This document shows positions 4,790-37,750 of a stretch of 64,000 nucleotides of DNA, piece by piece (the stretch's first letter is position 1; every line of letters starts with the position of its first letter). The position numbers were made by a program, and so were the translations under genes. This DNA comes from Giardia intestinalis. Its lineage: Eukaryota. Under the pieces are notes generated by a model that searched no databases, was not told the DNA's origin, and saw nothing but the letters and a program-made list of their open reading frames with translations. The stretch lies in NCBI GenBank assembly GCA_000002435.2, contig CM018793.1. The stretch is one strand, 5' to 3'.

Positions 4790-5398
<609 letters not shown>

Positions 5399-5560: not shown

Positions 5561-6022
5561 TTACTCTACAGCTACAGAAACAGAGAGCATGACCTTCGGG
5601 CCATCCACCTGGGTAATGGTCACATTGCCCAGTAGGCCAAGAGAATCTATTGCACCTGAAATGCACCCCTCAATAAATGCACAATAGAAGGTGAGTAAAT
5701 TGTCTTTTTGCATAACAAGCTTATAGCTCGCAAGAGGCAATTCTGCTCCCTCAAAGAGTGTCTCAATATCTTTAATGGTAGGATTTCCAAGGAACGTTCT
5801 GGTTTCTGGCCCAAACAGCGCTTCCCAAATAAACGCAATAAAAGAAACTTGCATCTTGGAGTCGCTGAGCTGTTGTGGAGGCAGAGTCTTGGTATATGCA
5901 CTGCCGGAGCGAAAACCAAGATTGAAGCCTAGTTGTTGCAATTTGAGTATAGCTTCAGGGCCTTTCAAGGAATTACTGTCTACTGTTCGCGTTAGGATGG
6001 AGTCTAAGAGCACGAAAATCAT
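5561..6022 (-). CDS. TRAPP complex Bet3-family subunit (Bet3/Trs31/Trs33-like).
   Basis: The 153-aa ORF aligns by eye to human TRAPPC3: LQQLGFNLGFR versus LDKMGFNIGVR, IAFIWEALFG versus AKVAFKMYLG, and FYCAFIEGCISGAIDSLG versus LLCGVLRGALEMV. Three overlapping ORFs on the plus strand (5647-5919 is minus; 5708-5932 and 5775-6029 are plus) have no recognisable content. Confidence 0.55.
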   Translation of the reverse strand: MIFVLLDSILTRTVDSNSLKGPEAILKLQQLGFNLGFRSGSAYTKTLPPQQLSDSKMQVSFIAFIWEALFGPETRTFLGNPTIKDIETLFEGAELPLASYKLVMQKDNLLTFYCAFIEGCISGAIDSLGLLGNVTITQVDGPKVMLSVSVAVE

Positions 6023-6075
6023 GTTCTAATTCGCAGGTGCTTTAGAAATTATCTAGCAAAAAAACACCCGAGGAC

Positions 6076-17618: not shown

Positions 17619-18800
17619 CTAATTTACACCGTCCAAATCCGGCTCGGCAATGATGCCCTCGATGACCGTCAGCAGCGAGTCGGCTAGATAGCAGCGGTCT
17701 CCCAGCGACTCCACAGTGCTCAAGTGGAGCTCCCGCAGAAGGGGATAGGCTCCCAGGTCCTGCAGGCTTTTCTTTCCGTGATCGGTGTGGCAATACAGGA
17801 GCAAGCAATCGCTAAGGTTGGCACACGTCTCTTCGCTGGGAAACCTAAGCGACGAAAGGCTAGCCATGTGCGCCTGAATCCTCTCTGGCAGGGCAGCATG
17901 CTCTTCTGGAGTCAGCCCGGCTCCACGTGGCTCCGCTTTGGTCTCAAGGCTTCTCTCGCAAACAAGAGCTAGCAAGATATGTTCTACCAACGGCTCAAGC
18001 ATCTCGGCGGTCTGAGCCCGGTTCTCGGCCTGATCGGACCCAGTAGCGGACTGGTCAGCGGGTCGGAGCATCAAAAACATGTTGTGGAGGAGCTGGCTGT
18101 ACTGAAAGGATATCCCTGGATAATCAGCGGCTGTATCAACAATGTGGGCTCCAACAAGGTTCGCCGCGAGAGAGTCGACAAAGAGGTGCGCGACAGATGG
18201 AGCGTCCCCTGTGGCTGTGGCAATGTTGATCAGCAGGTAGAGCGATCGCTGAATGAGCGGAGCAGTGCCAACCGTTGCTTTAGTGAACGATATGTTAAAC
18301 ATGAGCCCTGCAGCATTTGGCAAGCTAGGAGACGTCAGCAGGGTCCTAGTTATCTCCAGACATCGAGTAAAATTTATCAGAATGGCAGCAAACACCGTGT
18401 GAATCCTATTCTCCGGTGTTAGACGCAGGAGGGCCATTAGAAGGTACTCTAAAAGAGGAGATAAAGACGGAGAGGCGGCGAGGGCGTCTAGAAACTCCTG
18501 GGCTCTGCTTGCAGCCAAAAAGACTTGCTGCGAGAGGAGAACCTCCGTGAGCTCCTCCTCCCGCTCTGGCGTGGACCTGGCCTTTGCAGACAGGGCATCG
18601 ATGACAGCAGGGGACGACAGGGCGGAGATTACGTCGGGGTCATCCGAGGCCCGTACCAGCGTCGTGAGCGTCTCTGCAGTTAACGACGGCGGCGTCCTTT
18701 TCAGCGCAGAAAGACAGGGATCCATGTTCAGGGAAATGTCCTCAGTTGCCGGGGGCTGGCTCTTTGCCCACAACAGTGGGGGATTTTTTGCTACCCCCAA
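17619..18800 (-). CDS. Hypothetical alpha-helical (ARM/HEAT-like) protein (393 aa). Its first 291 bp lie inside the left inverted-repeat arm.
   Basis: Complete ORF. The N-terminal 97 codons are duplicated in the right arm as the truncated ORF 37451-37750. Confidence 0.55.
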   Translation of the reverse strand: MGVAKNPPLLWAKSQPPATEDISLNMDPCLSALKRTPPSLTAETLTTLVRASDDPDVISALSSPAVIDALSAKARSTPEREEELTEVLLSQQVFLAASRAQEFLDALAASPSLSPLLEYLLMALLRLTPENRIHTVFAAILINFTRCLEITRTLLTSPSLPNAAGLMFNISFTKATVGTAPLIQRSLYLLINIATATGDAPSVAHLFVDSLAANLVGAHIVDTAADYPGISFQYSQLLHNMFLMLRPADQSATGSDQAENRAQTAEMLEPLVEHILLALVCERSLETKAEPRGAGLTPEEHAALPERIQAHMASLSSLRFPSEETCANLSDCLLLYCHTDHGKKSLQDLGAYPLLRELHLSTVESLGDRCYLADSLLTVIEGIIAEPDLDGVN

Positions 18801-19444
18801 CCTGGGGTGTAAAGCAGCCGGACTTCACCGTGCACAGAATAGAGCCTATCTTGGCTGGGACTACTTCCGAGTCCACACCGGTGGCTTTCTGCCGTACAAC
18901 ACACCACATCATTGGAACAAGAAGGCGTTGTGACTGAGGGGCTCTGGGCTGCTTATCCAATGAAGGGGCGGCTTCCAAGCTCACTGGCGGGATATACCTA
19001 CGCTAGTGCACATTGTAGGCTACGCCAATGGAGCAGAGCTACGGCTCCGTCTGAACGGCCGCACATCCCGCTGTGCACCCCTGGATTAGCACTCGTGGCT
19101 ACACGTACTGAACAGAACATCCCCGCCAGCTCGCCTGTTCTGCTGATACTGTCAGGATCACCGATCCCTCCAACGTCCCAGTAAGCCGGCCATCCGATAC
19201 CGGCCAGGAAGCACAGATACATAGGACATCGGAGGATGCTCGAAATCTCCTGCTCTGGAATGGCTGTCGTCCTCCCCCTCTGGGTCTCTATTATAGTTGT
19301 ACTAGTAGTCCACTGGCGTCCAACTCAATAATCACACACTCATCAAGCTAGTAACATCCAGAACAAGCCCTCTATAGATTCCTGCTAGTGTAACTGCCAC
19401 GTGGTTGGAAGCGCACTACTAGAGGCTGGCCATTTACTATAGGG

Positions 19445-22042
19445 CTACTTTGTAAGGATGGCCACTATCTCCTCATAGCCTTTCTTCCTGGCCATGTCGA
19501 GGGGTGTCTCTGTACATGCACAAGTTAAATGGGGTTCTGTATTGTACTGGGTTCTTCTAACATCTCCTTCCTTCTCTGCAAGAAGTCTTACACACTCTAT
19601 GTTGTTATTATCTATTGCCCATATAAGAGCAGTCCAGCCGTACTTATCATGCATCCCCGCCTCCCTGCCCAGAAGTAGCTTGACACATTCTGGATGATTA
19701 TTACGTACTGCACCCATGAGAGCAGTTCTACCCTTATTGTCCTGCATGCCCCCCTCCTCACTCAAGAGTAATCTAATACATTCTAGATGACCGTTATATG
19801 CAGCAAGGATGAGAGCAGTCTGACCGTCACTGTCTTTCATTCCACTTTCGTGAGCTACTAGCTGTCTCACCGCTTCTGTGTATCCATATATTGCCGCTCT
19901 CATAAGTGCTGTTCCTTCGTATATTTCCCATTTATCTATTTTGACATATTCTGCTTTTCGTCCTTTTTGAAGAGATATAAGTGTTTTCAGCACCTCTACA
20001 TCGTTTGTATCTGCCGCCCGCATAAGAGCCGTAGTACCTCTGCCATCTGTTGGGCTGAGAATCTCTACGACGTCCTCGTAGCCCGCTTGTGCAGCAAGCG
20101 TCAGAGCTGTATCGCCATCATCATTCTTCTTTTCCTTGTCAGAGAGCTGATTCCTGACTGTTTCAATGTCTCCAATGAAGGAAGCACACATGAGTTGGGT
20201 CCAGGATGAAGCCTCGTATTCACGAAGAATCATAGCAGTGTCTGTACGGTCATTATTGAGAGCATGCACGAACGCTGTGTTCCCACTGCTATCCTTTATT
20301 CCTTTCTGGATTGGTATAAGCAGTTTTACCATCTCAGTATCTCCTCTGGCTGCTGCCCTCATGAGTGCCGTGATATCATCTTTATCTGTAGGATCGTCGT
20401 GCTCTACGAGGATCTCAACGAGTTCTGGATGTCCATTCTTAAGAGCGTAGTATAAGGCGTTGTGATTCTGCTTATCCTTTATTCCCTTTTCGTGACCAAG
20501 AAGGATTTTTACCATTTCAAGATTCCCCTTTTGTGCGGCAACCATTAAGGCAGTTTTGCCTTCATTGTCAGCCAGACCCTTTTCATGTGAGGCCAGAAGG
20601 GATGCAACTTCTGCATGGCCTTTCTCTGCGGCGATCATCAAAGCAGTTTGATTATTCTTGTTTGTCTCTCTACACTCGTGAAGAATGAGAATCCTGGTTA
20701 CCTCAGGATGGTTGTTGTATGAGGCGTGCATGAGCGCAGTCCAGCCGTTCTTGTCCTGGAGGCCGTTTTCCTCCCCAACAAGCAACTCGACGGGATCAAC
20801 GTGCCCCTGCTGGGCCGCGTGCATGAGGGCCGTCATCCCCTGTGCGTCACGCTGACCAACGCCGAGTCTTTCTTCAAGCAGCATCCAGACGGTCTCCGTG
20901 CTATTCGTATGCGCGGCACGCATCAGCCTTGGCAGCAAAAAGAGGCTGGACTGAGGGTCAGTCGTGTTCATCCTGTCACTGAACTGTGCAAGCCTATTCT
21001 CCAGTGCCTTAATCATAGCTAGATGTTCCTTACTTTGGTCTTCAAGTGCGTCGATCTTAGTAGATTTAATCTTAACATCCTCTTCCAGCAGCGCGATCCT
21101 GGCGTTAGCGCCATTCAGCGCAGCCTCCAAGGATCCGCACTTATACTTCAGCATCACGCACTGACCTCCCAACTCACCAACTGGGATGTCGAATGTAGCG
21201 AGCGTCTCGTGCAGCTCCCTGGCCGTCGGCCTCCTCTCTGGCTCCAATACGAATATCCGCTCCAGAACACTCTTTATGAAGCCATCAGTGACACCGCTCA
21301 GGTCCGGCCTCCACCCATCGATGAAGACCTCTGCCGGCTCCTTGCCCCCCAAGAAGTCCGGTCTCCTCAGAGTTACTAATTCATAAATGATGACCCCGAG
21401 GCTCCATACGTCGGAGGCAGGGCTGGCCTCGTTGTGGAGGAGCACCTCGGGGGCAACGTATGCCATTATTCCTATGAGAGTGCTCCCACTCCACAGGGCG
21501 TCCCTGCAGAGGCCGAAGTCGGCGATGACGAAGCGCTCTCCGTCTGCGTTGATAAATATATTGGCAGGCCTGAGGTCGCGGTGGACGAGGCCTCTAGTGT
21601 TTGCTCCATTGACGCTGTGGAGGTAGGCGAGGGCGGCGGTGAGCTGTTTCATGACAGAGAGAATCACGCCGGCAGACACGGGGATCTTCCTTCGCTTGTG
21701 CTCAGTGAGGAGGCGCTCAAGGGTCTTGTCGTGCCGGTCCGTGACGACGTAGAAGAAGCTTTCGTCTTCGACAACTTGATGGTACTTGATGACTCCCGGG
21801 TGAAAGAGGGTAAAAAGAGCGGCCAGCTCAAGCTTGATAGTATCCACGCTGCTCCTATCCAAGCCTTCAAGCAAGATCTCCTTCACGGCGAGACTCGGAT
21901 AACCTTCGAGGGAGTAGACTACACCTGTGGCATCTCTTCCTAGCACGCCATTCAGCCGCTCGTGGAGCTCCTTAAAGGTGAACGGTGGGATGGTGGGAGT
22001 CACTGCAGAAAGACTGAATGCGTTATTGCCATTGTCGGCCAT
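19445..22042 (-). CDS. NEK: NEK-family protein kinase fused to a coiled coil and about 15 ankyrin repeats (left copy).
   Basis: Kinase motifs VAVKEI (beta3 Lys), HRDLRPANI, DFG and APE. A coiled-coil segment (LEEDVKIKSTKIDALEDQSKEHLAMIKALENRLAQF) is followed by tandem TALM.AA..GH ankyrin units. AGTAAAT poly(A) signal at 19432-19438. Confidence 0.85.
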   Translation of the reverse strand: MADNGNNAFSLSAVTPTIPPFTFKELHERLNGVLGRDATGVVYSLEGYPSLAVKEILLEGLDRSSVDTIKLELAALFTLFHPGVIKYHQVVEDESFFYVVTDRHDKTLERLLTEHKRRKIPVSAGVILSVMKQLTAALAYLHSVNGANTRGLVHRDLRPANIFINADGERFVIADFGLCRDALWSGSTLIGIMAYVAPEVLLHNEASPASDVWSLGVIIYELVTLRRPDFLGGKEPAEVFIDGWRPDLSGVTDGFIKSVLERIFVLEPERRPTARELHETLATFDIPVGELGGQCVMLKYKCGSLEAALNGANARIALLEEDVKIKSTKIDALEDQSKEHLAMIKALENRLAQFSDRMNTTDPQSSLFLLPRLMRAAHTNSTETVWMLLEERLGVGQRDAQGMTALMHAAQQGHVDPVELLVGEENGLQDKNGWTALMHASYNNHPEVTRILILHECRETNKNNQTALMIAAEKGHAEVASLLASHEKGLADNEGKTALMVAAQKGNLEMVKILLGHEKGIKDKQNHNALYYALKNGHPELVEILVEHDDPTDKDDITALMRAAARGDTEMVKLLIPIQKGIKDSSGNTAFVHALNNDRTDTAMILREYEASSWTQLMCASFIGDIETVRNQLSDKEKKNDDGDTALTLAAQAGYEDVVEILSPTDGRGTTALMRAADTNDVEVLKTLISLQKGRKAEYVKIDKWEIYEGTALMRAAIYGYTEAVRQLVAHESGMKDSDGQTALILAAYNGHLECIRLLLSEEGGMQDNKGRTALMGAVRNNHPECVKLLLGREAGMHDKYGWTALIWAIDNNNIECVRLLAEKEGDVRRTQYNTEPHLTCACTETPLDMARKKGYEEIVAILTK

Positions 22043-22544
22043 GACAGTTTATTTTCAAAAATAAGACCAAGCGATTGGATTGAACGAGTGATTGGGCCGC
22101 ACCCTCAGAGGCTACAAGAGAGCACAGGCATCTGCCAGCCTCACTTCTCGAATCTGTGTTCACGACAGCAGACACGTCGTCCCATACACTGTGGAGCGCC
22201 CTTGCATGCGCTGGCATGGCGTCCCTGTCTGTCCTGGCCCGTTCGCGACTATCACGCATTACTAGTACTCTGCGCCAGCTCTCTCGACTGTGTAGTCATG
22301 GCAATTCCACGTGTGCACAGGCCATCTAGCAGCACTCGCCCGCGTCCTCTGCTCCTCCGCCACTCATCCACGCGGGCCATGCAGGGTCTAGTGGCCCTTC
22401 CAGCGCTGGCCACGTTGGTGCTCTCTTCTGATGCTGCATGCCCTACAGGATCACCCGTGCTCACCATATTCCTAGAACCCATCACGCACCAGGGGGCTCC
22501 CTCGCAATTGGTGCCCAGAAAGTCGCGAGCAGGATTCATCGGCG

Positions 22545-22561
22545 CGTTTACTACCTAAGTC
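22545..22561 (-). promoter_or_regulatory. Extended VSP poly(A) signal (left copy).
   Basis: The reverse complement reads tgACTTAGGTAGTAAAC, overlapping the TGA stop, matching the ACTYAGRTAGTRAAY element described for Giardia VSP transcripts. Confidence 0.7.
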
Positions 22562-24836
22562 ATGCCTTCCCTCTGCATATGAACCACCAGCAGAGGAAGC
22601 CCACAAGGCCAGCCACGACGACCACCACGGCGACGGAGATACCTGCTATGGCCCCCGTGGAGAGCCCGCTACTCTTGTTGGCGCCAGAGGACACACACTT
22701 GTCACCCTCCAGACTGTAGTCGTCCCCGCACTGACCGCACTTGTTCTCCTCGCTGCACCTGACGCACCCGTCGATACTGCAGGGGATGCACTTCGTTCCG
22801 TCTGTGTTCGGTCTCTGGTCTTTACTGGTACAGGCCTCGCACTTGCCGCCTGCTCCACAGTGCGAGCATCCGTCAATGGTACATGTGAAGCACCCGCTCC
22901 CAGCCAGGTTGGGTTTATTATTGCCGCTACACGCTGTGCACGTGGCAGGGGCCATGCCAGGAGCCTCTAGCGCTGCTGGGGCCGTGCATGCTGTGCAGCC
23001 ATATACCCCCACATATGCCTTAGCGGTGCTGCCAGCCCCTATCACTGTGCCAAGGGGGTTCTCGCAGGCCAGGACAGACTGATCAGTATTGGATGCCCCC
23101 GGGACCAGGAAGTACCGGCTGTTCTCGCTGGGGGCGGTGCACCTCCCTCCCTCGGCAGTCTTGCACATGTGGCTGCCAGGAGCCTTCTGAGTACTGTAGC
23201 AGCCGCCCATGTACAGGAAGTACCCGGCAGCACACTGGGTGCAGACGCCATTGGCACAGGTGTTGTCACCCTTAGTTCCTGTGCAGACGCCATCGATGGG
23301 GAACGTGGCGGGGTCTCCGCACAGCGAGCAGTACTGGGAGAACGCCCCGGCGCTGTCAACGACGACCGCCCCGCAGGCCCCAGACGTCCCCCCGCAGGCC
23401 GTGGGGTCCTCGCAGGCCTTTGTGCACTTCACCGGATTGGTTCCCTCCTTGCGATAGTTGGGCTTACAGGAGTTGCAGGTCAACGAGCCAGCGAAGGTGC
23501 ACGTTGCACACCCATCGACTCCATCTGTCGGGTTATCACAGGGGACGCATGTGCCGGGGGAAGTGCCCCCTCTCAAGAAGAACCCGGTCTTGCAGGTTTG
23601 GCATTTGGTCTTGTCAGCTTTCTCAGAGCAGGTTGCGCAGTTCTCGCCACAGGCGTCACATGTGAAGCCGCTGTTGGTGTTCTTGATGTACCCCTCCAGG
23701 CACTCTGTGCAGGTCGGCGGTGTGGCGCCAGTCCTCGAGCACTTCTTACAGCCGACGATGCCCTGGTTCTTCTTCTCTTGCTCTGTCACTGTGTCGCTGC
23801 ATAGAATACACGCTGTTGCGTCGTCTTTCATGAATAGCCCACTATCGGTGGCTTTGCAGCCGTCGTCTGTCTTTTCCACGCACGTCGTCGTCCCGTCGGC
23901 AGCAGTTCTTACCAGCTTCCCGTTACAATCGGTGCACCTCGGCTTTCCCGTGGCGTCACTATATTCGCATGCCGCGCACCCAGCTATGTCAGTAGCGCAG
24001 GCCTTGCACTCGTCTGCTTTTGGGTCTGCATAGCTATCACTACCACATCCACCAGCCTCTACACACTCAGTGCCCTTCAGGAACTTCCCCCCAAGGCAGG
24101 CGGTGCACTGGGTCGGCGTAGCAGACTCACACGTCAAACAGCCGGGTCCGCATTGCACACATGCACCATCCTTCGTAGCGTACCCTCCTTGGCATGCAGT
24201 GCACGTGGCAGCCCCTGTACCGCCACCTGGCGCCGTGCATGTGTAGCAGCCCGCCACCCCCGTGACTCCGTCTCGCGGAGTGACGTCTGAGCAAAGCACG
24301 CACTCGTTGCCAGGGGCTACTGGGCTGGCCGGGTTCTGGAATAGATACACAGCGTCTGCCTTGCAGGTGGTGCACACCCCCTTGTCGGCCGCCGTGCAGA
24401 TCTCAGACCACTGGCTCGTCTTGTAGCACCCGCCCATGAAGAGGAAGTACCCGTCCCCGCACTTTCCGCAGGCAGTATCCGAGCCCGCCAACGCGGTCCC
24501 GTCTGCCCTGGTGCACCCGGCCGCCGCGGCCTGGGGGGAGCCGGGGGGCCAGCAGAAGCCGCCGACCGGGACGCCCCCGGCCCTGCACTCGGTGCAGATC
24601 TCGGAGTACCCGACCGTCTCGCACTTGTCGGTCTGGCAGCTCGCGGCATGGTCTCCGTCTGGCTGATAGGCCGCCGCGAGTGTGACTGCAAGCGTGGTTC
24701 CTACACACAGCAGTGGGTATCGCCTCAGAGGGCCCGCCTCCGCCACCTGCTGTGTACCGAATGTTGTGCTTGCAATGGGGAGTGCATGTTGAGATGTGGT
24801 CGATAGGCGCCCTGCAGACCCTGTGGTGGGCGGCAC
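22560..24836 (-). CDS. VSP: Variant-specific surface protein (VSP), left copy, with an atypical N-terminal extension.
   Basis: Cysteine-rich (about 12% Cys) with many CXXC motifs. Two GGCY motifs. TM followed by a CRGKA C-terminus. Extended VSP poly(A) signal ACTTAGGTAGTAAAC overlapping the stop. Unlike the right copy, the N-terminus (MPPTTGSAGRLSTTSQH...) is not a canonical signal peptide. Confidence 0.85.
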   Translation of the reverse strand: MPPTTGSAGRLSTTSQHALPIASTTFGTQQVAEAGPLRRYPLLCVGTTLAVTLAAAYQPDGDHAASCQTDKCETVGYSEICTECRAGGVPVGGFCWPPGSPQAAAAGCTRADGTALAGSDTACGKCGDGYFLFMGGCYKTSQWSEICTAADKGVCTTCKADAVYLFQNPASPVAPGNECVLCSDVTPRDGVTGVAGCYTCTAPGGGTGAATCTACQGGYATKDGACVQCGPGCLTCESATPTQCTACLGGKFLKGTECVEAGGCGSDSYADPKADECKACATDIAGCAACEYSDATGKPRCTDCNGKLVRTAADGTTTCVEKTDDGCKATDSGLFMKDDATACILCSDTVTEQEKKNQGIVGCKKCSRTGATPPTCTECLEGYIKNTNSGFTCDACGENCATCSEKADKTKCQTCKTGFFLRGGTSPGTCVPCDNPTDGVDGCATCTFAGSLTCNSCKPNYRKEGTNPVKCTKACEDPTACGGTSGACGAVVVDSAGAFSQYCSLCGDPATFPIDGVCTGTKGDNTCANGVCTQCAAGYFLYMGGCYSTQKAPGSHMCKTAEGGRCTAPSENSRYFLVPGASNTDQSVLACENPLGTVIGAGSTAKAYVGVYGCTACTAPAALEAPGMAPATCTACSGNNKPNLAGSGCFTCTIDGCSHCGAGGKCEACTSKDQRPNTDGTKCIPCSIDGCVRCSEENKCGQCGDDYSLEGDKCVSSGANKSSGLSTGAIAGISVAVVVVVAGLVGFLCWWFICRGKA

Positions 24837-25192
24837 TCGGCCTTCCTAGAAGCTATGCTCCCAGTAGATGGCTACAGTGAGCAAGCCCTGACTCGTCTGG
24901 CTTCAGTTCCGTACGTAGTTTATTGCTCAGTCGATTGTGAACAGCCCTTGAGGCCCGGTGCCCTAATCCGGTATTGGGGATCTGACTATGTAACACGCCA
25001 CTGAAGTAGAGTGGGTGTTTCCAAAAGCGCGTGACTTGATGCAACTCTCCAGTGCATCGGTTCGCCCTACCACGGGGGATAGCCGGGGCTGGCCTGGACA
25101 GGGCTTTTCTCTCGTACCGATCAGTTCACAGGTTTCCTTCTTATGTTTACAACATACTAATAAATAAGCCAAGCCAGTCCTAGGCACACCGC

Positions 25193-28100
25193 ATGCTGAT
25201 TCTCCTGTGTGCTGCTGCATGTCTCGCCGAGGCGTGCGGGACAGGACCTGCATGTGTTAACGGAGACTGCGCCTACGGGGACGGAGCACACTTCTGCCAG
25301 TGCAGGCGGGGCTGGGCGGGGGCTGCGTGCGATGCTCCCCGTGCAGGGTTCTGCAGGGTAACTACTAATACTGGCAAGGCGTCTACAGACAGGGCCGTCA
25401 ACTACGCCTGCCTCGTGAACGGGACGGAGTGCACAGGGTCGAGCAAGTGCACCTACTACGCGGGGGCGTACTCGTGCGACCCCTGTCCCGATGGCTTCGT
25501 GTCCTACGAGGGCGAGTGCCTGCCGAGGGGCTGCTTCAACACCGACGACTTCTCAAACCAGGAGGCAACGAAGGCCCCCTGCAACGGCCGCGGCCGCTGC
25601 CTCCTGAAGGACCCCGGGCTGGCCGGGCTGAGTGCTGACGACTACGCGTGCGACTGCTACCCGATCTACCGCGGGGGCCTCTGCCAGTCGTGCGACGACG
25701 CCAACGCGATCGCTACAGAAAGCTCTTCGTCTGACGCCCTCCCTACGTGCAATGCGCGGGCCTGCCAGGACTCGGATGGCATCGTGTGCTCAGGCCAGGG
25801 AACGTGCACCCTCGACGTGGGCCTCGATCGCGAATCGTACCGCTACCGCTGCAAGTGCAATGATGGCTACACACGCGTTGGGCACAGGTGCGTCAGGACG
25901 GAGTGCGTGGCCACGATTGACGGGTCCCCGGTCGTCTGCGGGGGCTTCGGGAAGTGCACAGATGAAGGAAACAACGGGGTGTTCAGATGTGTTTGCGATT
26001 CGGATGCAGTCCAGGTCGATAAGTTTTGCACATATTCCGCGTGCACAGACGAGTCCCGCTCAAAGATCTGTGGCGGAGTGGGCGCGTGTGTGCGCAATGG
26101 CGCTGGCTATAGTTGCGATTGCCGAGGGCTTGCCACGGGCGACCTCTGCGATACTTGCACTGACAAGTCTGCTAAGATAAATGGCACCTGTGTTCCAGTG
26201 GGGTGCCTCACTTCAAACAACCAGGAATCATGCAAGAACGGAGGAACATGTGTCAAGTCCAACGGCGAGTACCACTGCCGCTGCCCGGACATGCTCTTGC
26301 CGTCGACGGAGAGTGCACGTCCCCCGCGTGCATGGACGAGGAACTGGGGAAGGTCTGCTCGGGGCACGGCACGTGCAAGACGGACGATCTACGAAATATA
26401 CAATGCACTTGTGATCAGGACTATACCTACATCGCTCCGGGGCGTTGCATCTTGAGCACTTTGGTAGATAGCCCTGCCACGGTTTGCAGTGACCATGGAC
26501 GCATTGTCGTTAGTGCTGAGGCTCCTGATACGATGACGTGCCAGTGTTCGCCTATCCACACAGGAGCTAAGTGCGCAGAATGTGATCAACAGAACGCGCA
26601 AATGATTGGCGAGAAATGTATTGCAAAGAAGTGCATTGTGCAGCAACAGCCACCGGATCCACAGCCCAGTCTGCGCACGGCTACTGCTCAGGATATCTGC
26701 GGGAACACAGGCACGTACACCACTTATGGTGATCCGAGCAATCCGTTCATCACATGCGTCCCTAAAGATGCTGATAGTGGAAATGTCTCCGCCTACAACG
26801 GCACCTTCTCTGCTAAACCTGGATGTGTATTTATCAGTAAGATAGACAAGACAAGAAGATTCTTTTGTGGATTCCTTGAGAATATAACAGAAAACCTGTC
26901 AACTGGTAACTTGCCTACGTGCGCTAAACCTTCCGAAAAACCCGATCTGCCTGAAACATGTACTCACTGTCCAACTGACTTTCACCTTGTACACTTTGGG
27001 GAAAACAATAGCACATGTATGCACAAGAGTTGTCACGATGGCAAATCCAGTCATATGTGGTACAATTACTGCGGCGGCGTGGGAGACTGTATTCAGAAGA
27101 AGGATAAAAGCGGATACGAGTGTGATTGTGGGACTGCTGCTAAATGGGATCCAAATTTGAAGGCGTGTGTTACTGATGCATGCAAGCTCAACAAGAGTCT
27201 TGCTGGCCCCTATGCACCAGACTACTGTATTCCTCAGTCTACCTTTACACTCGAATGCACTGTCGGACGGGACGCAACGTGGCAGTGTAATTGCACTGGG
27301 GACTATGTTACGTACAACAAGACGTGCATTTCAAAGAGTAAGAACGCTGATCCAAAGACTCAGCGAGCAAGGGGACTCTGTGGCGGCCCCGGGGCGGGAT
27401 ATATAGACAGTACTGGAACCTGCGTCTGCAGCAATGGCTTCCTCAAGATCGGTGACATGTGCTACAGCTACGACTGCCTGCCAGTTGGCATATCAGATAA
27501 CATAAGGAATCCGGATATCAACGTGCTTGTCTGCTCCGGAAAGGGGGTCTGCGCATACAACCAGCTGACTGGCCGGTACGGCTGCGAGTGCAGCGACGGA
27601 CTGGAGGCCTTCGGGGGCTACTGCACTCATCCAGGATGCGCCGGAAAGGTAATGCATAACGGAGAAATTAAGTATGTTGAGTGCAAAATCTACGATGGAA
27701 CAACTGGAGATTGTACAAACGATAAGGGCACATATTCCTGCAAGTGTACTACTCCGTATAGATCTGTCAATGGGATCTGTGTTCATCAGCGTTGCGTATC
27801 GTATGATAACGTCTATTGCGGAGGAGATGTCCTGGCTGCATGCGTGCAGGGGAGTAATTACTATTACGGGTGTGTCTGCTCCGAAGGCTATGAGAGGGGC
27901 CAGCTCAATTCGGAATGCATTCCAAGTAAGTGTGTTTACAGAAGGCTGCTGAGTGATCCCACTATTGCATGCAATGGGTTAGGAACATGTGGCGGAGAAG
28001 GATCTTTGTTGAAGAATAGGCGGTGTGAGTGCAAGTCTGGTGCTAAGCTAGTCACACTTAGAGATGTGAATGGGGAGTTGAGAGAAACATGTATATTAAG

Positions 28101-30249
28101 TGAGTGCATTTCTAGTGAGGACGGAGTGGAACCGCCGATTATCTGTGGAGGACTAGGCAGTTGTGGGTCCACAGGATGCGTATGCGATCTGGGGACAAAG
28201 TTATTTAAAAAGGCTTGCTTTGGCATCAACTGCTTTATTAACACCGTAGATGATAGCGGACAACTTGTTGAGTCTGTGTGCGGTGGCGAGACCGTTGGGG
28301 TGTGCACAAAGATAGCGTCGCACGGCGATCGTCGAGACTACGCTTGTAAGTGCAAGGACCCGAAGCCTGACGAGTATGAAGAACTTGATGGGTTCTGTCT
28401 ACCAAAAGCTTGCATATTTGAAATCACAACCTTGACTAATCAGCAGGTGAGGACGATGTGCGGTGGAAAGCAGTTTGGAACATGCGTTCTTAATGCTACT
28501 CAATCATCCAAGTCATACTGTAAGTGCATAAATCGATATGACATTATTCAAATAACAAATGGAAAGTGTATGAAGAAAACCTGTCTTAGCGACTCTCTTT
28601 CTGGAGGTCCGGAGGGATACGTTGAATGTTCTGGACATGGGAAGTGTATAGGGGATCATATTGTGGGGTACTCGTGCAATTGTGACGAAAATTATCAAAC
28701 GGTTGCAGACGATCGCCGTTATTTGTGCGTACCAGCTGTCTGTGTTGTATCAGAGACAAATTCCAGTACTATATGCAACGGAAGAGGGACCTGTCAGTTC
28801 AAGACAGACCCAGGAAAGTGCGAGTGTAGGCCTGGGTATGATGGTACCAAATGTGAGACGTGTGCAAATGGCTACAAGGAACACACAGATGCACAGTGCT
28901 ACCTCAATGGCTGTCCGGCAGACAATTGTGGCACGGAGGAAAATACTAGCGTAGGGGCTTGCCAATTTAGCGGAAACAGTTTTGCTTGCGTCTGCGTCAA
29001 CTCGAGCTTCGTCGTTGACAGTGCTAGCAAGAAGTGCCGAAAATCCAGATGCGTTTGGTCGGATCCATACGATCAGACAGAAAAAACGTGCTATGGCATG
29101 GGTACGTGCAATGATAACGGCGAGGACACTGGGGCGTGTGTTTGCAACCCCGGGACAACCCTAGTCGGGACAAACATCTGTGTTTATAGCCAGTGCATCT
29201 CGGATGGAAGCGACCCCAAAGCAATATGCAAGGGGCGCGGGACATGCGTAGAGGGCCCTGTCGCCGGGACAGGACTGTGCAGATGCGACAGCAGCAGATA
29301 CCGCACAGACAAGAAGACCGGCCAGTGCTTTGTCAAGGAGTGCTTCGGGGCACACGAGAGCATCCTGGCCGAGGTCTGCGATGGCGGTGGAACATGCAGT
29401 GAAGACACTAAAAAGTGCAACTGTAGCGTAGACGGCTTCCAGAGCCTCGACGGCCAGAACGGCTGCGTGCACAGCAGCTGCGTCTCGTCGAACAACAAGC
29501 TTTGTAGCGGCTTTGGGGCCTGCGAGAAGACCGGTGACACCTACGGCTGCCTGTGCGCAAGTTACTATACTCTGGTCGACAAAGACTGCATCCCCACAAG
29601 GTGTCTCAAGGACGGGAAAGTCTGCAACGGCGGCGGCACGTGCTCCGGCGAGGGATCCTCTGCGACCTGTAGCTGCAACCAGGGCTGGGCTTCGCTGAAT
29701 AACCTCTGCTACCCGGCAGCCTGCGTTTCCAGTGGGACGCTCTGCGGGGGGAATGGCAACTGTCCACTTTCCACAGATAGTACATGCGAGTGCAAGTATG
29801 GGTATGAAAGTGTTCTTGACCAGCTCTGTATCAGCAGCCAGTGCGTCCAGCGCGGCACCGACGGCACCGTGACGATCTGCGGGGGCAACGGCAGGTGCGT
29901 GTCTGAGAACGGCGTGACTCCCAGCTGCGTGTGCAACGAGGGCTTCTCTCTCACAAGCGACTTCGTCTGCGGAGTCCCTGCTCCATCCAACAAGTCATCA
30001 AGTACCATAACGATTGCAGTCGTGGTCGTCGTCCTCCTCGTCCTCGTTGCAGTGGCCGGCTTCCTCGTCTGGTGGTTCGTGATACGGCCCAGGAAGAGCG
30101 GTGAGTTGAGGGAGCGCGCCCCGCGGAAAGGCCCTAGCTTTAGTGGCTCGCAAAAGCTCAAGAAGCAAGCAAGCTCCAAGGCGTCGCTCCACGCCACTGC
30201 GCCCCTACTGAGCCGGTCATCTCATGCCGGTTCTAGTGTCCAGCTCTAG
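25193..30249 (+). CDS. HCMP: High-cysteine membrane protein (HCMP, EGF-like/CXC-rich, about 1,680 codons), encoded as two overlapping ORFs (25193-26455 and 26203-30249) joined by an apparent -1 frameshift near 26288. Possible pseudogene or sequencing error.
   Basis: Signal peptide MLILLCAAACLAEA. Dozens of EGF-like Cys modules (CxCxxGY..., GxCxC) continue seamlessly across the frame change (...NGEYHCRCPD | GHALAVDGECTSPAC...). C-terminal TM IAVVVVVLLVLVAVAGFLVWWFVI followed by a 56-aa tail with no CRGKA. Confidence 0.75.
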
Positions 30250-31534
30250 TTCGCCGCCATCCATGCAAGATATTACAGCATGCACGAGTTGGCCCTCCAA
30301 AACTGTAAATCTGGGTATAAGACTCACTCAGCTCGAGTAGAGGAATCATCTACTGAGAGTAATTGTCCCTCGCCTGAAGCGTGTCCAGACGTCTCACGGG
30401 CAGCAAGCCTGGCCCTCTGAGGGTGGGGTGGTTGTAGGTAGCAAGCAGGGACTCTCCTCCACTGGTGCAAAGGGACGACCAGGGGCCCCGTGCGGTCGTC
30501 GGTGCCCGTGCCTCCGTGTCTCGTGCAGCGCAAGCTGGAGATCAGACCAGCCCGGCGACCAGTGCAGAGCCCGACAAGTGCAAGGCGGTGGGCGTGGGTG
30601 TCATCCAGCAATCAGAGGGATACCACAGCGAGAGGACAGGGGCACATACGGACACCACCCACCCGGTCCCCATCAGGAGCCCCCTATCAGTCCTCTTCTA
30701 CCCACTAGCTGGACCGGGACCCAGGGACTGCAACTGTAGGAGCGCTGCCCGGGACACAGCCGGACGGACACCGAGGGGCCCAGCCAACGGGGAGCCCCGA
30801 TGGCAGCAGTTGTGATAAATGGGAGCATCTAAAAGGACAGCGGCCAGAGCCTCACCCACCGTGAAGCGAGGGACCTCTAGCAAACCACACGAGCCTGTGA
30901 GAAGGCCAGGGCTTTAGACGCACACTCTCAGATAGCGCACGTCCCCGCGGAGCAACCGAGGAAGGCAAAAGACTCTGGATACAATACTAGAGAGAAGCCC
31001 CTGTTTGCTGTCTACAACCAACTCTCGCCCTCAGACTGGCCAGGAATTGAACGAGAAGTTATTCGTGAGACTCCTAGATCACGCTCAGATGGGGGCTTAG
31101 CAGCACAGTATAAACGGATATCAGTGTCTAGGGGAGCAGCCTGTTTGGCGTTGGCCGACTTAGTCTTGAGCAGAGCCATCCTCTCTAAGACGACCTGTAT
31201 AAAGAGTGAGAGCAATAGCAAAGCATCAGGATAGTGATCGCCAGTTGGGTGCGGTAGAACACGTGATAGTTACGGGTGTCACATACAAGAAGGCTGTGGG
31301 CACTATGGTAGAGGACAGCACTCAATACTCCAGAGCTGGATGCCACTGCGCCCTAAGTACTGGTAGAGATGCGATCTGACAGTCAGCACTCTCCACTGGG
31401 CACGTATTGGACAGCCTTTTGAGATGGAAGTTGATGATAATCGAGATTGACTGGTAACTCTAAAAACAGAGCTTGTTCACCAGAAGAGTGCGCTGCCACC
31501 AGCAGAGCTTTATCACCATCTGTGTCGCACTATA

Positions 31535-33691
31535 ATGTTGCTGATTGCATTGCACCTTGCGACAAGCATACTCGCGGCGCCTTGCCAGCCAGACGGAGAC
31601 CATGCCGCGAGCTGCCAGACCGACAAGTGCGAGACGGTCGGGTACTCCGAGATCTGCACCGAGTGCAGGGCCGGGGGCGTCCCGGTCGGCGGCTTCTGCT
31701 GGCCCCCCGGCTCCCCCCAGGCCGCGGCGGCCGGGTGCACCAGGGCAGACGGGACCGCGTTGGCGGGCTCGGATACTGCCTGCGGAAAGTGCGGGGACGG
31801 GTACTTCCTCTTCATGGGCGGGTGCTACAAGACGAGCCAGTGGTCTGAGATCTGCACGGCGGCCGACAAGGGGGTGTGCACCACCTGCAAGGCAGACGCT
31901 GTGTATCTATTCCAGAACCCGGCCAGCCCAGTAGCCCCTGGCAACGAGTGCGTGCTTTGCTCAGACGTCACTCCGCGAGACGGAGTCACGGGGGTGGCGG
32001 GCTGCTACACATGCACGGCGCCAGGTGGCGGTACAGGGGCTGCCACGTGCACTGCATGCCAAGGAGGGTACGCTACGAAGGATGGTGCATGTGTGCAATG
32101 CGGACCCGGCTGTTTGACGTGTGAGTCTGCTACGCCGACCCAGTGCACCGCCTGCCTTGGGGGGAAGTTCCTGAAGGGCACTGAGTGTGTAGAGGCTGGT
32201 GGATGTGGTAGTGATAGCTATGCAGACCCAAAAGCAGACGAGTGCAAGGCCTGCGCTACTGACATAGCTGGGTGCGCGGCATGCGAATATAGTGACGCCA
32301 CGGGAAAGCCGAGGTGCACCGATTGTAACGGGAAGCTGGTAAGAACTGCTGCCGACGGGACGACGACGTGCGTGGAAAAGACAGACGACGGCTGCAAAGC
32401 CACCGATAGTGGGCTATTCATGAAAGACGACGCAACAGCGTGTATTCTATGCAGCGACACAGTGACAGAGCAAGAGAAGAAGAACCAGGGCATCGTCGGC
32501 TGTAAGAAGTGCTCGAGGACTGGCGCCACACCGCCGACCTGCACAGAGTGCCTGGAGGGGTACATCAAGAACACCAACAGCGGCTTCACATGTGACGCCT
32601 GTGGCGAGAACTGCGCAACCTGCTCTGAGAAAGCTGACAAGACCAAATGCCAAACCTGCAAGACCGGGTTCTTCTTGAGAGGGGGCACTTCCCCCGGCAC
32701 ATGCGTCCCCTGTGATAACCCGACAGATGGAGTCGATGGGTGTGCAACGTGCACCTTCGCTGGCTCGTTGACCTGCAACTCCTGTAAGCCCAACTATCGC
32801 AAGGAGGGAACCAATCCGGTGAAGTGCACAAAGGCCTGCGAGGACCCCACGGCCTGCGGGGGGACGTCTGGGGCCTGCGGGGCGGTCGTCGTTGACAGCG
32901 CCGGGGCGTTCTCCCAGTACTGCTCGCTGTGCGGAGACCCCGCCACGTTCCCCATCGATGGCGTCTGCACAGGAACTAAGGGTGACAACACCTGTGCCAA
33001 TGGCGTCTGCACCCAGTGTGCTGCCGGGTACTTCCTGTACATGGGCGGCTGCTACAGTACTCAGAAGGCTCCTGGCAGCCACATGTGCAAGACTGCCGAG
33101 GGAGGGAGGTGCACCGCCCCCAGCGAGAACAGCCGGTACTTCCTGGTCCCGGGGGCATCCAATACTGATCAGTCTGTCCTGGCCTGCGAGAACCCCCTTG
33201 GCACAGTGATAGGGGCTGGCAGCACCGCTAAGGCATATGTGGGGGTATATGGCTGCACAGCATGCACGGCCCCAGCAGCGCTAGAGGCTCCTGGCATGGC
33301 CCCTGCCACGTGCACAGCGTGTAGCGGCAATAATAAACCCAACCTGGCTGGGAGCGGGTGCTTCACATGTACCATTGACGGATGCTCGCACTGTGGAGCA
33401 GGCGGCAAGTGCGAGGCCTGTACCAGTAAAGACCAGAGACCGAACACAGACGGAACGAAGTGCATCCCCTGCAGTATCGACGGGTGCGTCAGGTGCAGCG
33501 AGGAGAACAAGTGCGGTCAGTGCGGGGACGACTACAGTCTGGAGGGTGACAAGTGTGTGTCCTCTGGCGCCAACAAGAGTAGCGGGCTCTCCACGGGGGC
33601 CATAGCAGGTATCTCCGTCGCCGTGGTGGTCGTCGTGGCTGGCCTTGTGGGCTTCCTCTGCTGGTGGTTCATATGCAGAGGGAAGGCATGA
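31535..33691 (+). CDS. VSP: Variant-specific surface protein (VSP), right copy, with a canonical signal peptide.
   Basis: Starts MLLIALHLATSILAAP (typical VSP signal peptide). Identical to the left copy from QPDGDHAASCQTDKCETVGY onward. CXXC and GGCY motifs. Ends ...GFLCWWFICRGKA. Confidence 0.9.
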   Translation: MLLIALHLATSILAAPCQPDGDHAASCQTDKCETVGYSEICTECRAGGVPVGGFCWPPGSPQAAAAGCTRADGTALAGSDTACGKCGDGYFLFMGGCYKTSQWSEICTAADKGVCTTCKADAVYLFQNPASPVAPGNECVLCSDVTPRDGVTGVAGCYTCTAPGGGTGAATCTACQGGYATKDGACVQCGPGCLTCESATPTQCTACLGGKFLKGTECVEAGGCGSDSYADPKADECKACATDIAGCAACEYSDATGKPRCTDCNGKLVRTAADGTTTCVEKTDDGCKATDSGLFMKDDATACILCSDTVTEQEKKNQGIVGCKKCSRTGATPPTCTECLEGYIKNTNSGFTCDACGENCATCSEKADKTKCQTCKTGFFLRGGTSPGTCVPCDNPTDGVDGCATCTFAGSLTCNSCKPNYRKEGTNPVKCTKACEDPTACGGTSGACGAVVVDSAGAFSQYCSLCGDPATFPIDGVCTGTKGDNTCANGVCTQCAAGYFLYMGGCYSTQKAPGSHMCKTAEGGRCTAPSENSRYFLVPGASNTDQSVLACENPLGTVIGAGSTAKAYVGVYGCTACTAPAALEAPGMAPATCTACSGNNKPNLAGSGCFTCTIDGCSHCGAGGKCEACTSKDQRPNTDGTKCIPCSIDGCVRCSEENKCGQCGDDYSLEGDKCVSSGANKSSGLSTGAIAGISVAVVVVVAGLVGFLCWWFICRGKA

Positions 33692-33706
33692 CTTAGGTAG
33701 TAAACG
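33690..33706 (+). promoter_or_regulatory. Extended VSP poly(A) signal (right copy).
   Basis: tgACTTAGGTAGTAAAC, overlapping the stop codon at 33689-33691. Confidence 0.7.
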
Positions 33707-34208
33707 CGCCGATGAATCCTGCTCGCGACTTTCTGGGCACCAATTGCGAGGGAGCCCCCTGGTGCGTGATGGGTTCTAGGAATATGGTGAGCACGGGTGA
33801 TCCTGTAGGGCATGCAGCATCAGAAGAGAGCACCAACGTGGCCAGCGCTGGAAGGGCCACTAGACCCTGCATGGCCCGCGTGGATGAGTGGCGGAGGAGC
33901 AGAGGACGCGGGCGAGTGCTGCTAGATGGCCTGTGCACACGTGGAATTGCCATGACTACACAGTCGAGAGAGCTGGCGCAGAGTACTAGTAATGCGTGAT
34001 AGTCGCGAACGGGCCAGGACAGACAGGGACGCCATGCCAGCGCATGCAAGGGCGCTCCACAGTGTATGGGACGACGTGTCTGCTGTCGTGAACACAGATT
34101 CGAGAAGTGAGGCTGGCAGATGCCTGTGCTCTCTTGTAGCCTCTGAGGGTGCGGCCCAATCACTCGTTCAATCCAATCGCTTGGTCTTATTTTTGAAAAT
34201 AAACTGTC

Positions 34209-36806
34209 ATGGCCGACAATGGCAATAACGCATTCAGTCTTTCTGCAGTGACTCCCACCATCCCACCGTTCACCTTTAAGGAGCTCCACGAGCGGCTGAA
34301 TGGCGTGCTAGGAAGAGATGCCACAGGTGTAGTCTACTCCCTCGAAGGTTATCCGAGTCTCGCCGTGAAGGAGATCTTGCTTGAAGGCTTGGATAGGAGC
34401 AGCGTGGATACTATCAAGCTTGAGCTGGCCGCTCTTTTTACCCTCTTTCACCCGGGAGTCATCAAGTACCATCAAGTTGTCGAAGACGAAAGCTTCTTCT
34501 ACGTCGTCACGGACCGGCACGACAAGACCCTTGAGCGCCTCCTCACTGAGCACAAGCGAAGGAAGATCCCCGTGTCTGCCGGCGTGATTCTCTCTGTCAT
34601 GAAACAGCTCACCGCCGCCCTCGCCTACCTCCACAGCGTCAATGGAGCAAACACTAGAGGCCTCGTCCACCGCGACCTCAGGCCTGCCAATATATTTATC
34701 AACGCAGACGGAGAGCGCTTCGTCATCGCCGACTTCGGCCTCTGCAGGGACGCCCTGTGGAGTGGGAGCACTCTCATAGGAATAATGGCATACGTTGCCC
34801 CCGAGGTGCTCCTCCACAACGAGGCCAGCCCTGCCTCCGACGTATGGAGCCTCGGGGTCATCATTTATGAATTAGTAACTCTGAGGAGACCGGACTTCTT
34901 GGGGGGCAAGGAGCCGGCAGAGGTCTTCATCGATGGGTGGAGGCCGGACCTGAGCGGTGTCACTGATGGCTTCATAAAGAGTGTTCTGGAGCGGATATTC
35001 GTATTGGAGCCAGAGAGGAGGCCGACGGCCAGGGAGCTGCACGAGACGCTCGCTACATTCGACATCCCAGTTGGTGAGTTGGGAGGTCAGTGCGTGATGC
35101 TGAAGTATAAGTGCGGATCCTTGGAGGCTGCGCTGAATGGCGCTAACGCCAGGATCGCGCTGCTGGAAGAGGATGTTAAGATTAAATCTACTAAGATCGA
35201 CGCACTTGAAGACCAAAGTAAGGAACATCTAGCTATGATTAAGGCACTGGAGAATAGGCTTGCACAGTTCAGTGACAGGATGAACACGACTGACCCTCAG
35301 TCCAGCCTCTTTTTGCTGCCAAGGCTGATGCGTGCCGCGCATACGAATAGCACGGAGACCGTCTGGATGCTGCTTGAAGAAAGACTCGGCGTTGGTCAGC
35401 GTGACGCACAGGGGATGACGGCCCTCATGCACGCGGCCCAGCAGGGGCACGTTGATCCCGTCGAGTTGCTTGTTGGGGAGGAAAACGGCCTCCAGGACAA
35501 GAACGGCTGGACTGCGCTCATGCACGCCTCATACAACAACCATCCTGAGGTAACCAGGATTCTCATTCTTCACGAGTGTAGAGAGACAAACAAGAATAAT
35601 CAAACTGCTTTGATGATCGCCGCAGAGAAAGGCCATGCAGAAGTTGCATCCCTTCTGGCCTCACATGAAAAGGGTCTGGCTGACAATGAAGGCAAAACTG
35701 CCTTAATGGTTGCCGCACAAAAGGGGAATCTTGAAATGGTAAAAATCCTTCTTGGTCACGAAAAGGGAATAAAGGATAAGCAGAATCACAACGCCTTATA
35801 CTACGCTCTTAAGAATGGACATCCAGAACTCGTTGAGATCCTCGTAGAGCACGACGATCCTACAGATAAAGATGATATCACGGCACTCATGAGGGCAGCA
35901 GCCAGAGGAGATACTGAGATGGTAAAACTGCTTATACCAATCCAGAAAGGAATAAAGGATAGCAGTGGGAACACAGCGTTCGTGCATGCTCTCAATAATG
36001 ACCGTACAGACACTGCTATGATTCTTCGTGAATACGAGGCTTCATCCTGGACCCAACTCATGTGTGCTTCCTTCATTGGAGACATTGAAACAGTCAGGAA
36101 TCAGCTCTCTGACAAGGAAAAGAAGAATGATGATGGCGATACAGCTCTGACGCTTGCTGCACAAGCGGGCTACGAGGACGTCGTAGAGATTCTCAGCCCA
36201 ACAGATGGCAGAGGTACTACGGCTCTTATGCGGGCGGCAGATACAAACGATGTAGAGGTGCTGAAAACACTTATATCTCTTCAAAAAGGACGAAAAGCAG
36301 AATATGTCAAAATAGATAAATGGGAAATATACGAAGGAACAGCACTTATGAGAGCGGCAATATATGGATACACAGAAGCGGTGAGACAGCTAGTAGCTCA
36401 CGAAAGTGGAATGAAAGACAGTGACGGTCAGACTGCTCTCATCCTTGCTGCATATAACGGTCATCTAGAATGTATTAGATTACTCTTGAGTGAGGAGGGG
36501 GGCATGCAGGACAATAAGGGTAGAACTGCTCTCATGGGTGCAGTACGTAATAATCATCCAGAATGTGTCAAGCTACTTCTGGGCAGGGAGGCGGGGATGC
36601 ATGATAAGTACGGCTGGACTGCTCTTATATGGGCAATAGATAATAACAACATAGAGTGTGTAAGACTTCTTGCAGAGAAGGAAGGAGATGTTAGAAGAAC
36701 CCAGTACAATACAGAACCCCATTTAACTTGTGCATGTACAGAGACACCCCTCGACATGGCCAGGAAGAAAGGCTATGAGGAGATAGTGGCCATCCTTACA
36801 AAGTAG
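34209..36806 (+). CDS. NEK: NEK-family protein kinase with ankyrin repeats (right copy, identical to 19445-22042).
   Basis: Identical 865-aa translation. AGTAAAT poly(A) signal at 36813-36819, 7 nt after the TAG stop. Confidence 0.85.
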   Translation: MADNGNNAFSLSAVTPTIPPFTFKELHERLNGVLGRDATGVVYSLEGYPSLAVKEILLEGLDRSSVDTIKLELAALFTLFHPGVIKYHQVVEDESFFYVVTDRHDKTLERLLTEHKRRKIPVSAGVILSVMKQLTAALAYLHSVNGANTRGLVHRDLRPANIFINADGERFVIADFGLCRDALWSGSTLIGIMAYVAPEVLLHNEASPASDVWSLGVIIYELVTLRRPDFLGGKEPAEVFIDGWRPDLSGVTDGFIKSVLERIFVLEPERRPTARELHETLATFDIPVGELGGQCVMLKYKCGSLEAALNGANARIALLEEDVKIKSTKIDALEDQSKEHLAMIKALENRLAQFSDRMNTTDPQSSLFLLPRLMRAAHTNSTETVWMLLEERLGVGQRDAQGMTALMHAAQQGHVDPVELLVGEENGLQDKNGWTALMHASYNNHPEVTRILILHECRETNKNNQTALMIAAEKGHAEVASLLASHEKGLADNEGKTALMVAAQKGNLEMVKILLGHEKGIKDKQNHNALYYALKNGHPELVEILVEHDDPTDKDDITALMRAAARGDTEMVKLLIPIQKGIKDSSGNTAFVHALNNDRTDTAMILREYEASSWTQLMCASFIGDIETVRNQLSDKEKKNDDGDTALTLAAQAGYEDVVEILSPTDGRGTTALMRAADTNDVEVLKTLISLQKGRKAEYVKIDKWEIYEGTALMRAAIYGYTEAVRQLVAHESGMKDSDGQTALILAAYNGHLECIRLLLSEEGGMQDNKGRTALMGAVRNNHPECVKLLLGREAGMHDKYGWTALIWAIDNNNIECVRLLAEKEGDVRRTQYNTEPHLTCACTETPLDMARKKGYEEIVAILTK

Positions 36807-36812
36807 CCCTAT

Positions 36813-36819
36813 AGTAAAT
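36813..36819 (+). promoter_or_regulatory. Giardia poly(A) signal AGTRAAY downstream of the NEK stop.
   Basis: tagccctatAGTAAATgg. The mirror copy is at 19432-19438 on the minus strand. Confidence 0.55.
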
Positions 36820-37450
36820 GGCCAGCCTCTAGTAGTGCGCTTCCAACCACGTGGCAGTTACACTAGCAGGAATCTATAGAGGGCTTGTTCTGGATGTTAC
36901 TAGCTTGATGAGTGTGTGATTATTGAGTTGGACGCCAGTGGACTACTAGTACAACTATAATAGAGACCCAGAGGGGGAGGACGACAGCCATTCCAGAGCA
37001 GGAGATTTCGAGCATCCTCCGATGTCCTATGTATCTGTGCTTCCTGGCCGGTATCGGATGGCCGGCTTACTGGGACGTTGGAGGGATCGGTGATCCTGAC
37101 AGTATCAGCAGAACAGGCGAGCTGGCGGGGATGTTCTGTTCAGTACGTGTAGCCACGAGTGCTAATCCAGGGGTGCACAGCGGGATGTGCGGCCGTTCAG
37201 ACGGAGCCGTAGCTCTGCTCCATTGGCGTAGCCTACAATGTGCACTAGCGTAGGTATATCCCGCCAGTGAGCTTGGAAGCCGCCCCTTCATTGGATAAGC
37301 AGCCCAGAGCCCCTCAGTCACAACGCCTTCTTGTTCCAATGATGTGGTGTGTTGTACGGCAGAAAGCCACCGGTGTGGACTCGGAAGTAGTCCCAGCCAA
37401 GATAGGCTCTATTCTGTGCACGGTGAAGTCCGGCTGCTTTACACCCCAGG

Positions 37451-37750
37451 TTGGGGGTAGCAAAAAATCCCCCACTGTTGTGGGCAAAGAGCCAGCCCCC
37501 GGCAACTGAGGACATTTCCCTGAACATGGATCCCTGTCTTTCTGCGCTGAAAAGGACGCCGCCGTCGTTAACTGCAGAGACGCTCACGACGCTGGTACGG
37601 GCCTCGGATGACCCCGACGTAATCTCCGCCCTGTCGTCCCCTGCTGTCATCGATGCCCTGTCTGCAAAGGCCAGGTCCACGCCAGAGCGGGAGGAGGAGC
37701 TCACGGAGGTTCTCCTCTCGCAGCAAGTCTTTCTGGCTGCCATGGATTGA
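37451..37750 (+). pseudogene. Truncated duplicate (97 codons) of the 5' end of gene 17619-18800, created by the repeat boundary.
   Basis: The translation is identical to the left-arm gene through ...LSQQVFLAA, then diverges at 37741 and terminates after MD*. Confidence 0.6.

Follow-up and report, generated by a model that had tools for sequence, protein, structure and literature searches.

A one-base deletion splits an EGF-like high-cysteine membrane protein gene of Giardia intestinalis WB into two annotated gene models

Within the 64,000-nucleotide stretch of Giardia intestinalis DNA analysed here (contig CM018793.1 of assembly GCA_000002435.2, hereafter the window), two long open reading frames (ORFs) on the plus strand overlap one another, and the question that they raise is whether they are two genes or one and, if one, whether the break between them is an error in the reference, a site at which the frame is changed during expression, or a genuine lesion. 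The upstream ORF (25193-26455, frame 2) opens with an ATG and codes for 420 aa, and the downstream ORF (26203-30249, frame 1) for 1348 aa when counted from a GTG allowed by translation table 11; the overlap, put at about 250 nt in the first-pass annotation, amounts to 253 nt. The 420-aa product is an exact match to GL50803_00113268, a 'hypothetical protein' of G. intestinalis WB clone C6 located on a chromosome of 4,018,654 bp, and recorded as KAE8305956.1 in the 2020 assembly and as XP_001705333.1 (UniProt A8BRR3) in the 2007 genome. The downstream frame carries a separate model, GL50803_0050127, to which the annotation gives the name 'HCMP EGF-like'. The features of the locus, in terms of a single high-cysteine membrane protein (HCMP) gene, are as follows.

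25193..26296, plus strand: codons 1-368 of the HCMP (EGF-like group), read in frame 2, the in-frame part of GL50803_00113268, with Pfam EGF matches
25193-25264, plus strand: signal peptide, first 24 codons, identical to the predicted signal peptide of GL50803_00114626 (Table S1, 10.1101/2022.03.07.483299)
26296..26297, plus strand: one-nucleotide deletion, cutting the Ile codon ATT of the relatives to TT, as placed by the DH alignment, the homologs and ORF repair
26297..26455, plus strand: frameshifted end of GL50803_00113268, 52 codons rich in Arg and free of Cys (LPSTESARPPRAW...RGVAS) and TGA
26297..30249, plus strand: codons 369-1685 of the HCMP and TAG, read in frame 1, of which about 1215 aa are almost identical to GL50803_00114626
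26533..30249, plus strand: gene model GL50803_0050127 (XP_037902367.1 / KAE8305957.1, 1238 aa), starting at an internal ATG
30007..30081, plus strand: transmembrane segment ITIAVVVVVLLVLVAVAGFLVWWFV in the -1 frame, the same as the predicted transmembrane domain of GL50803_00114626 (Table S1)
30082-30246, plus strand: 55-aa cytoplasmic tail in the -1 frame, the same as the predicted tail of GL50803_00114626 (Table S1)
30304..30309, plus strand: TGTAAA, a polyadenylation-signal-like hexamer of putative role, 55 nt past the TAG

The two frames exchange their cysteine content over a short distance. In frame 2, Cys makes up 13.2% of the residues as far as ...EYHCRCP and 0% of the next 56, a slice in which Arg reaches 17.9%; in frame 1, the proportion rises from 3.6% over the 28 residues that precede the junction to 10.7% over the 1321 that follow it, in keeping with the jump of Cys periodicity from frame 2 to frame 1 that had been described beforehand. 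The position of the break was obtained from isolate DH, in which positions 2261-9307 of one locus (L001; GCA_000498715.1, contig AHGT01000044.1) are colinear with 22458-29507 of the window at 92.9% identity. Because the colinear match takes in a minus-strand variant-specific surface protein (VSP) gene, the intergenic region and the HCMP gene, the DH locus was taken as the positional ortholog, and it is in frame at the site of the WB lesion. The alignment has ATGCTCATTGCC in DH where the window has ATGCTC-TTGCC, and an A is therefore absent between 26296 and 26297; the deletion form of the site is CTCTTGCC, and the form with the A is CTCATTGCC. This is the sole frame-breaking indel in the reliably aligned coding sequence, the remaining ones being of 3 nt, together with a pair of 8 nt and 10 nt that sum to 18 and keep the frame.

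Re-insertion of the A gave a single ORF of 1685 aa with the terminal stop alone, equal in length to the product of the intact paralog GL50803_00114626, and Pfam recognised in the repaired protein one more EGF_2 domain directly past the junction, which is bridged in frame by the peptide CPDMLIAVDGECTSPACMDEELGK. Nine intact homologs from WB, DH and P15 run uninterrupted through the site (CPDML[IV]A[VI].GECTS), GL50803_00114626 itself reading ...EYHCRCPDMLIAVDGECTSPAC... over the junction. Since homologs and DH alignment together fix the position, the true junction is that between CPDML and (I)AVDGEC. The first-pass annotation had thus been right to read one HCMP gene thrown into the -1 frame by one missing base, and the comparison with the HCMPs of other isolates that it had proposed showed these to be intact at the site. 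Its interval of 26270-26300 also contains the break, but the junction that it favoured, at about 26288, lies some 8 nt short of the true one; the residues GHAL that it counted as in-frame are frame-1 nonsense once the junction is fixed by homology, and the missing A falls about 8 nt 3' of the ccgctgcccgg run in which it had looked for the lesion, outside any homopolymer. A metagenome scan for the junction, with and without the extra base, returned 0 matches.

The repaired protein contains 190 Cys (11.3%), 28 CxC and 6 CxxC motifs, and so exceeds the 10% Cys by which HCMPs, also termed CRMPs, are recognised; it carries Pfam EGF and EGF_2 domains, and is 97% identical over 100% of its length to GL50803_00114626, which places it among the EGF-like HCMPs by homology. 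What separates it from that group as it stands is that signal peptide and C-terminal transmembrane segment do not occur in one ORF: the ORF with the signal peptide stops at 26455, and the transmembrane segment is encoded in the -1 frame. Transmembrane segment and tail are intact, but out of reach from the start codon at 25193. The locus is consequently a member of the HCMP/CRMP family by descent only, as a pseudogene or split gene, and the 420-aa ORF taken alone has the defining features of a secretory Cys-rich protein (SCRP), being Cys-rich, with a predicted signal peptide and without a transmembrane domain.

Two intact genes on the same chromosome, GL50803_00114626 (1685 aa) and GL50803_00113531 (1687 aa), share its 90%-identity cluster. 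These two paralogs differ from each other at 117 sites, and over them the repaired gene is a patchwork of blocks resembling one or the other, the 113531-like blocks lying at about aa 82-107, 264-352 and 400-409 and the remainder being 114626-like, almost wholly so over residues 423-1685. In sequence, all three WB paralogs are patchworks of one another. The frameshift at codon 369 adjoins a block switch between aa 352 and 371. Over 399 nt compared with the coding sequence of GL50803_00114626, the window has 8 synonymous and 8 non-synonymous codon differences. The GC content along the HCMP gene (25193-30249) falls from 62% to 47% and returns to 58%.

An error of assembly or sequencing, leaving the real gene intact and the reference one base short, had been offered as an alternative by the first-pass annotation, and it is a reading for which the means certainly exist: PacBio data do yield indel frameshifts, and a family of near-identical paralogs complicates polishing. 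For the 2020 assembly, PacBio reads were assembled de novo and polished with Quiver; because its authors had noticed homopolymer frameshifts, an indel correction with 100x Illumina data followed, which mended 85 indels affecting 38 genes (Xu et al.). The present frameshift survived that correction, aimed as it was at such errors, and the identical truncated 420-aa product is found in the annotations of both the 2007 Sanger and the 2020 PacBio and Illumina-corrected assemblies; moreover, as early as 2010 the product of ORF 113268 had been reported to have EGF repeats but no transmembrane domain (Chiu et al. 2010, PMC2867935). The context of the deletion (CTC^TTG) is that of an isolated A between C and T, the only homopolymer of at least 5 in the ORF overlap being CCCCC at 26321. 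Neither homopolymer context nor disagreement between assemblies, the two marks of a sequencing artefact, is thus seen here, as judged from the assemblies, and we regard an error as very improbable.

Giardia is tetraploid, and for that reason an intact allele may be present in some WB chromosome copies. Short reads would map ambiguously over the 3' 3.7 kb, since this part is near-identical to GL50803_00114626; the junction itself is inside a paralog-specific 5' segment at 25193-26600.

Programmed recoding, in which the full-length HCMP would be obtained through a -1 shift of the ribosome, slippage during transcription or a very small intron, agrees with the direction of the shift, with the roughly 250 nt over which both frames are open, and with the 1317 stop-free codons downstream. 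Nothing at the junction, however, resembles the required signals: the upstream frame contains no X XXY YYZ slippery heptamer between 26203 and 26455 and no A or T run there, the predicted fold of 26300-26420 (121 nt; -37 kcal/mol) is no better than that of shuffled sequences (mean -37.4; z = 0.13), and near the junction there are neither 5' GTATGT/CTATGT motifs nor a branch/acceptor motif. Furthermore, the DH ortholog and eight further homologs carry the additional base and read through the site in frame; because this holds for the ortholog and all paralogs alike, the shift is not a conserved feature. Programmed -1 frameshifting and transcriptional slippage were accordingly rejected, for want of a heptamer, of structure and of any relative that shares the shift, as was a frame-bridging intron, its motifs being absent and colinearity with DH leaving nothing extra to remove. 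We consider it scarcely credible that recoding restores the protein.

The explanation that we prefer, with a probability of about 0.85 for the whole of it, is that a genuine and recent single-nucleotide deletion in WB split a 1685-codon EGF-like HCMP gene, the 3' relic of which is untranslated. What has been observed is that the base is deleted, where it is missing, that two independent assemblies agree on this, and that ortholog and paralogs are intact at the site; what becomes of the products of both halves is what we infer. One of three close paralogs on the same chromosome would have lost, in WB C6, the A of an ATT Ile codon, and translation from the ATG at 25193 would now give a 420-aa product composed of a signal peptide, 368 Cys-rich ectodomain residues including it, and 52 residues out of frame. 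Such a product, if made, would be secreted or degraded rather than membrane-anchored, since anchor and cytoplasmic tail are both absent; the tail peptides CPDMLLPSTESAR and TIYEIYNALVIR are diagnostic of it. The remaining 1317 codons in the -1 frame, annotated as GL50803_0050127, would be an untranslated relic, because they lack a start of their own, as they do a signal peptide and a promoter-like element.

The flanking signals accord with this division. An AT-rich element, ACTAATAAATAAG, lies 27-39 nt 5' of the ATG at 25193; GL50803_0050127 has no signal peptide, and 5' of its ATG at 26533 there is no AT-rich initiator-like element but only coding-type sequence. No polyadenylation-like signal occurs in the 120 nt 3' of the premature TGA (26455). 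As the initiator-like element is found only 5' of 25193 and TGTAAA only after the final TAG, the arrangement suggests one transcript spanning both ORFs, its 3' three-quarters untranslated.

As to age, Nei-Gojobori comparison of the repaired WB gene with DH gave dN/dS values of 0.31 on the 5' side of the lesion and 0.27 on its 3' side, and the 1317 downstream codons are without an internal stop. No decay being visible on either side, the lesion was taken as recent and, with DH in frame, would be specific to the WB lineage; the first-pass annotation had likewise suspected a recent pseudogene-type lesion. The same data may be read otherwise, in that the undecayed 3' part could reflect conversion from an intact paralog rather than a young lesion, so that the choice is between a recent deletion and a 3' part refreshed by such conversion. 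The mosaic pattern at the 117 paralog-differing sites makes gene conversion plausible, and dS against DH varies locally between 0.07 and 0.52.

The DH copy has a history of its own. Past the position matching 29507 of the window its homology ends, and the sequence runs into a reverse-transcriptase ORF (Pfam RVT_1, E = 2e-17; L001 9308-10815), which probably belongs to a non-LTR retrotransposon and removes the transmembrane and tail region. Unless the DH draft assembly is chimeric here, the gene at this locus appears to have been disrupted independently in WB, by the frameshift, and in DH.

Whether the 5' half has been put to new use deserves separate consideration, since a recent preprint (10.1101/2022.03.07.483299) classed GL50803_00113268 as an SCRP, with expression values of 0-24 (Table S9) and the entry 'Unique' for peptide evidence (Table S13), an entry that is second-hand here and comes from a table that names no peptides. 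GL50803_0050127 appears in its Table S7 of pseudogenes, as lacking a signal peptide. The main text of the preprint makes no link between the two models, and no explicit description of 113268/0050127 as a split gene was found in the literature searched. Because transcription and unique peptides are reported, the 5' piece may not be a completely dead gene. It might be argued from this that the deletion turned a membrane HCMP into a new secreted Cys-rich protein that WB expresses and selection maintains, only the 3' remainder being pseudogenic: the ORF retains its ATG, signal peptide, eight-odd Cys modules and the AT-rich element upstream, and the authors of the preprint argue that SCRPs descend from CRMPs (10.1101/2022.03.07.483299). 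Against this, the expression values are low, the final EGF module is incomplete and gives way to 52 Arg-rich nonsense residues, the truncated state is known from WB alone, with DH in frame, and dN/dS cannot distinguish selection that followed the lesion from selection that preceded it. We therefore hold such neofunctionalisation to be unlikely; were it true, the locus would provide a dated, single-step case of the origin of the SCRP/tenascin-like secreted proteins of Giardia from membrane HCMPs.

The gene lies within a large palindrome, the arms of which are 6174 nt long, 100% complementary and separated by a spacer of 6882 nt.

18511..24684, no strand assigned: left arm, with a NEK-type kinase/ankyrin ORF (19445-22042, minus) and an ATG-less VSP copy ending at 22560 (minus)
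31567..37740, no strand assigned: right arm, with a VSP in which ATG and signal peptide are present (31535-33691, plus), and with a NEK-type kinase/ankyrin ORF (34209-36806, plus)

The spacer contains no long ORF besides the split HCMP, as had been claimed for it. The arms bear coding genes and are nevertheless 100% identical, which points to very recent duplication or to ongoing homogenisation. The two VSP copies (22560-24836, minus; 31535-33691, plus) are identical only as far as the arm boundary: an ATG and signal peptide (MLLIALHLATSILA...) are present in the right copy, and the left has a different 5' end without an in-frame ATG (...PLLCVGTTLAVTLAAAYQPDG). At the syntenic position, the DH VSP (L001 2363-4516) shares the start-less 5' end of the left copy, and because of this the head-less state would be older than the split between WB and DH. 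The kinase gene beside the VSP in DH is on the opposite strand, and blastn (E ≤ 1e-3) matches it nowhere in the window. Head-to-head VSP pairs are reported often to enclose retrotransposon remnants (10.1101/2022.03.07.483299). Between the HCMP stop and the right VSP start (30250-31534, ~1.3 kb; 55.7% GC) there is no ORF longer than 116 aa. Further out, the variable region is bordered by two genes of housekeeping type, one for an annexin-domain, alpha-giardin-like protein (12890-14119, minus) and one for a glutamate-synthase-like protein with Fer4_20 and pyridine-nucleotide-disulphide oxidoreductase domains (37889-40621, minus), the latter beginning ~150 nt outside the right arm.

The case is an ordinary one, a recent pseudogenisation in a multigene family that evolves fast, and the reference already carries two gene models for it. 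Its chief value is one of annotation hygiene in a much-used reference genome: GL50803_00113268 and GL50803_0050127 are two halves of one frameshifted HCMP, and HCMP/SCRP censuses, expression studies and secretome lists should not treat them as separate members of the family. It also offers a small, clean case of turnover in a Cys-rich family, combining a one-nucleotide deletion in WB, a reverse-transcriptase-bearing element in DH and patchwork paralogs.

The closest known systems are the paralogs GL50803_00114626 and GL50803_00113531, which share the architecture of the repaired gene (signal peptide, EGF-like modules with ~190 Cys, transmembrane segment and 55-aa tail) but are intact, whereas the window copy is short of one A in codon 369 and its ORF is split. 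Viral gag-pol junctions are examples of programmed -1 ribosomal frameshift sites, and such sites likewise consist of two long overlapping ORFs, the second of them in the -1 frame; the junction described here, by contrast, has no heptamer, stimulatory structure or conserved shift, and homology pinpoints a plain deletion. The EGFCP/tenascin-like cyst proteins (PMC2867935) resemble GL50803_00113268 in having a signal peptide, more than 10% Cys and EGF-like repeats without a transmembrane domain, and 113268 was indeed listed in Fig. S6 of that study among proteins with 'some characteristics of EGFCPs' (Chiu et al. 2010, PMC2867935); however, EGFCPs are of ~570 aa, the nearest relatives of 113268 are membrane HCMPs of 1685 aa, and it lacks a transmembrane domain only because of the frameshift. 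Comparable, too, is the former 'HCP' GL50803_00115202, likewise a short, secreted-looking Cys-rich ORF with its transmembrane segment in another frame, and genes of this type were read by the authors as pseudogenes generated by indels; GL50803_00113268, on the other hand, was kept as a bona fide SCRP, and GL50803_0050127 was placed separately among the pseudogenes (10.1101/2022.03.07.483299).
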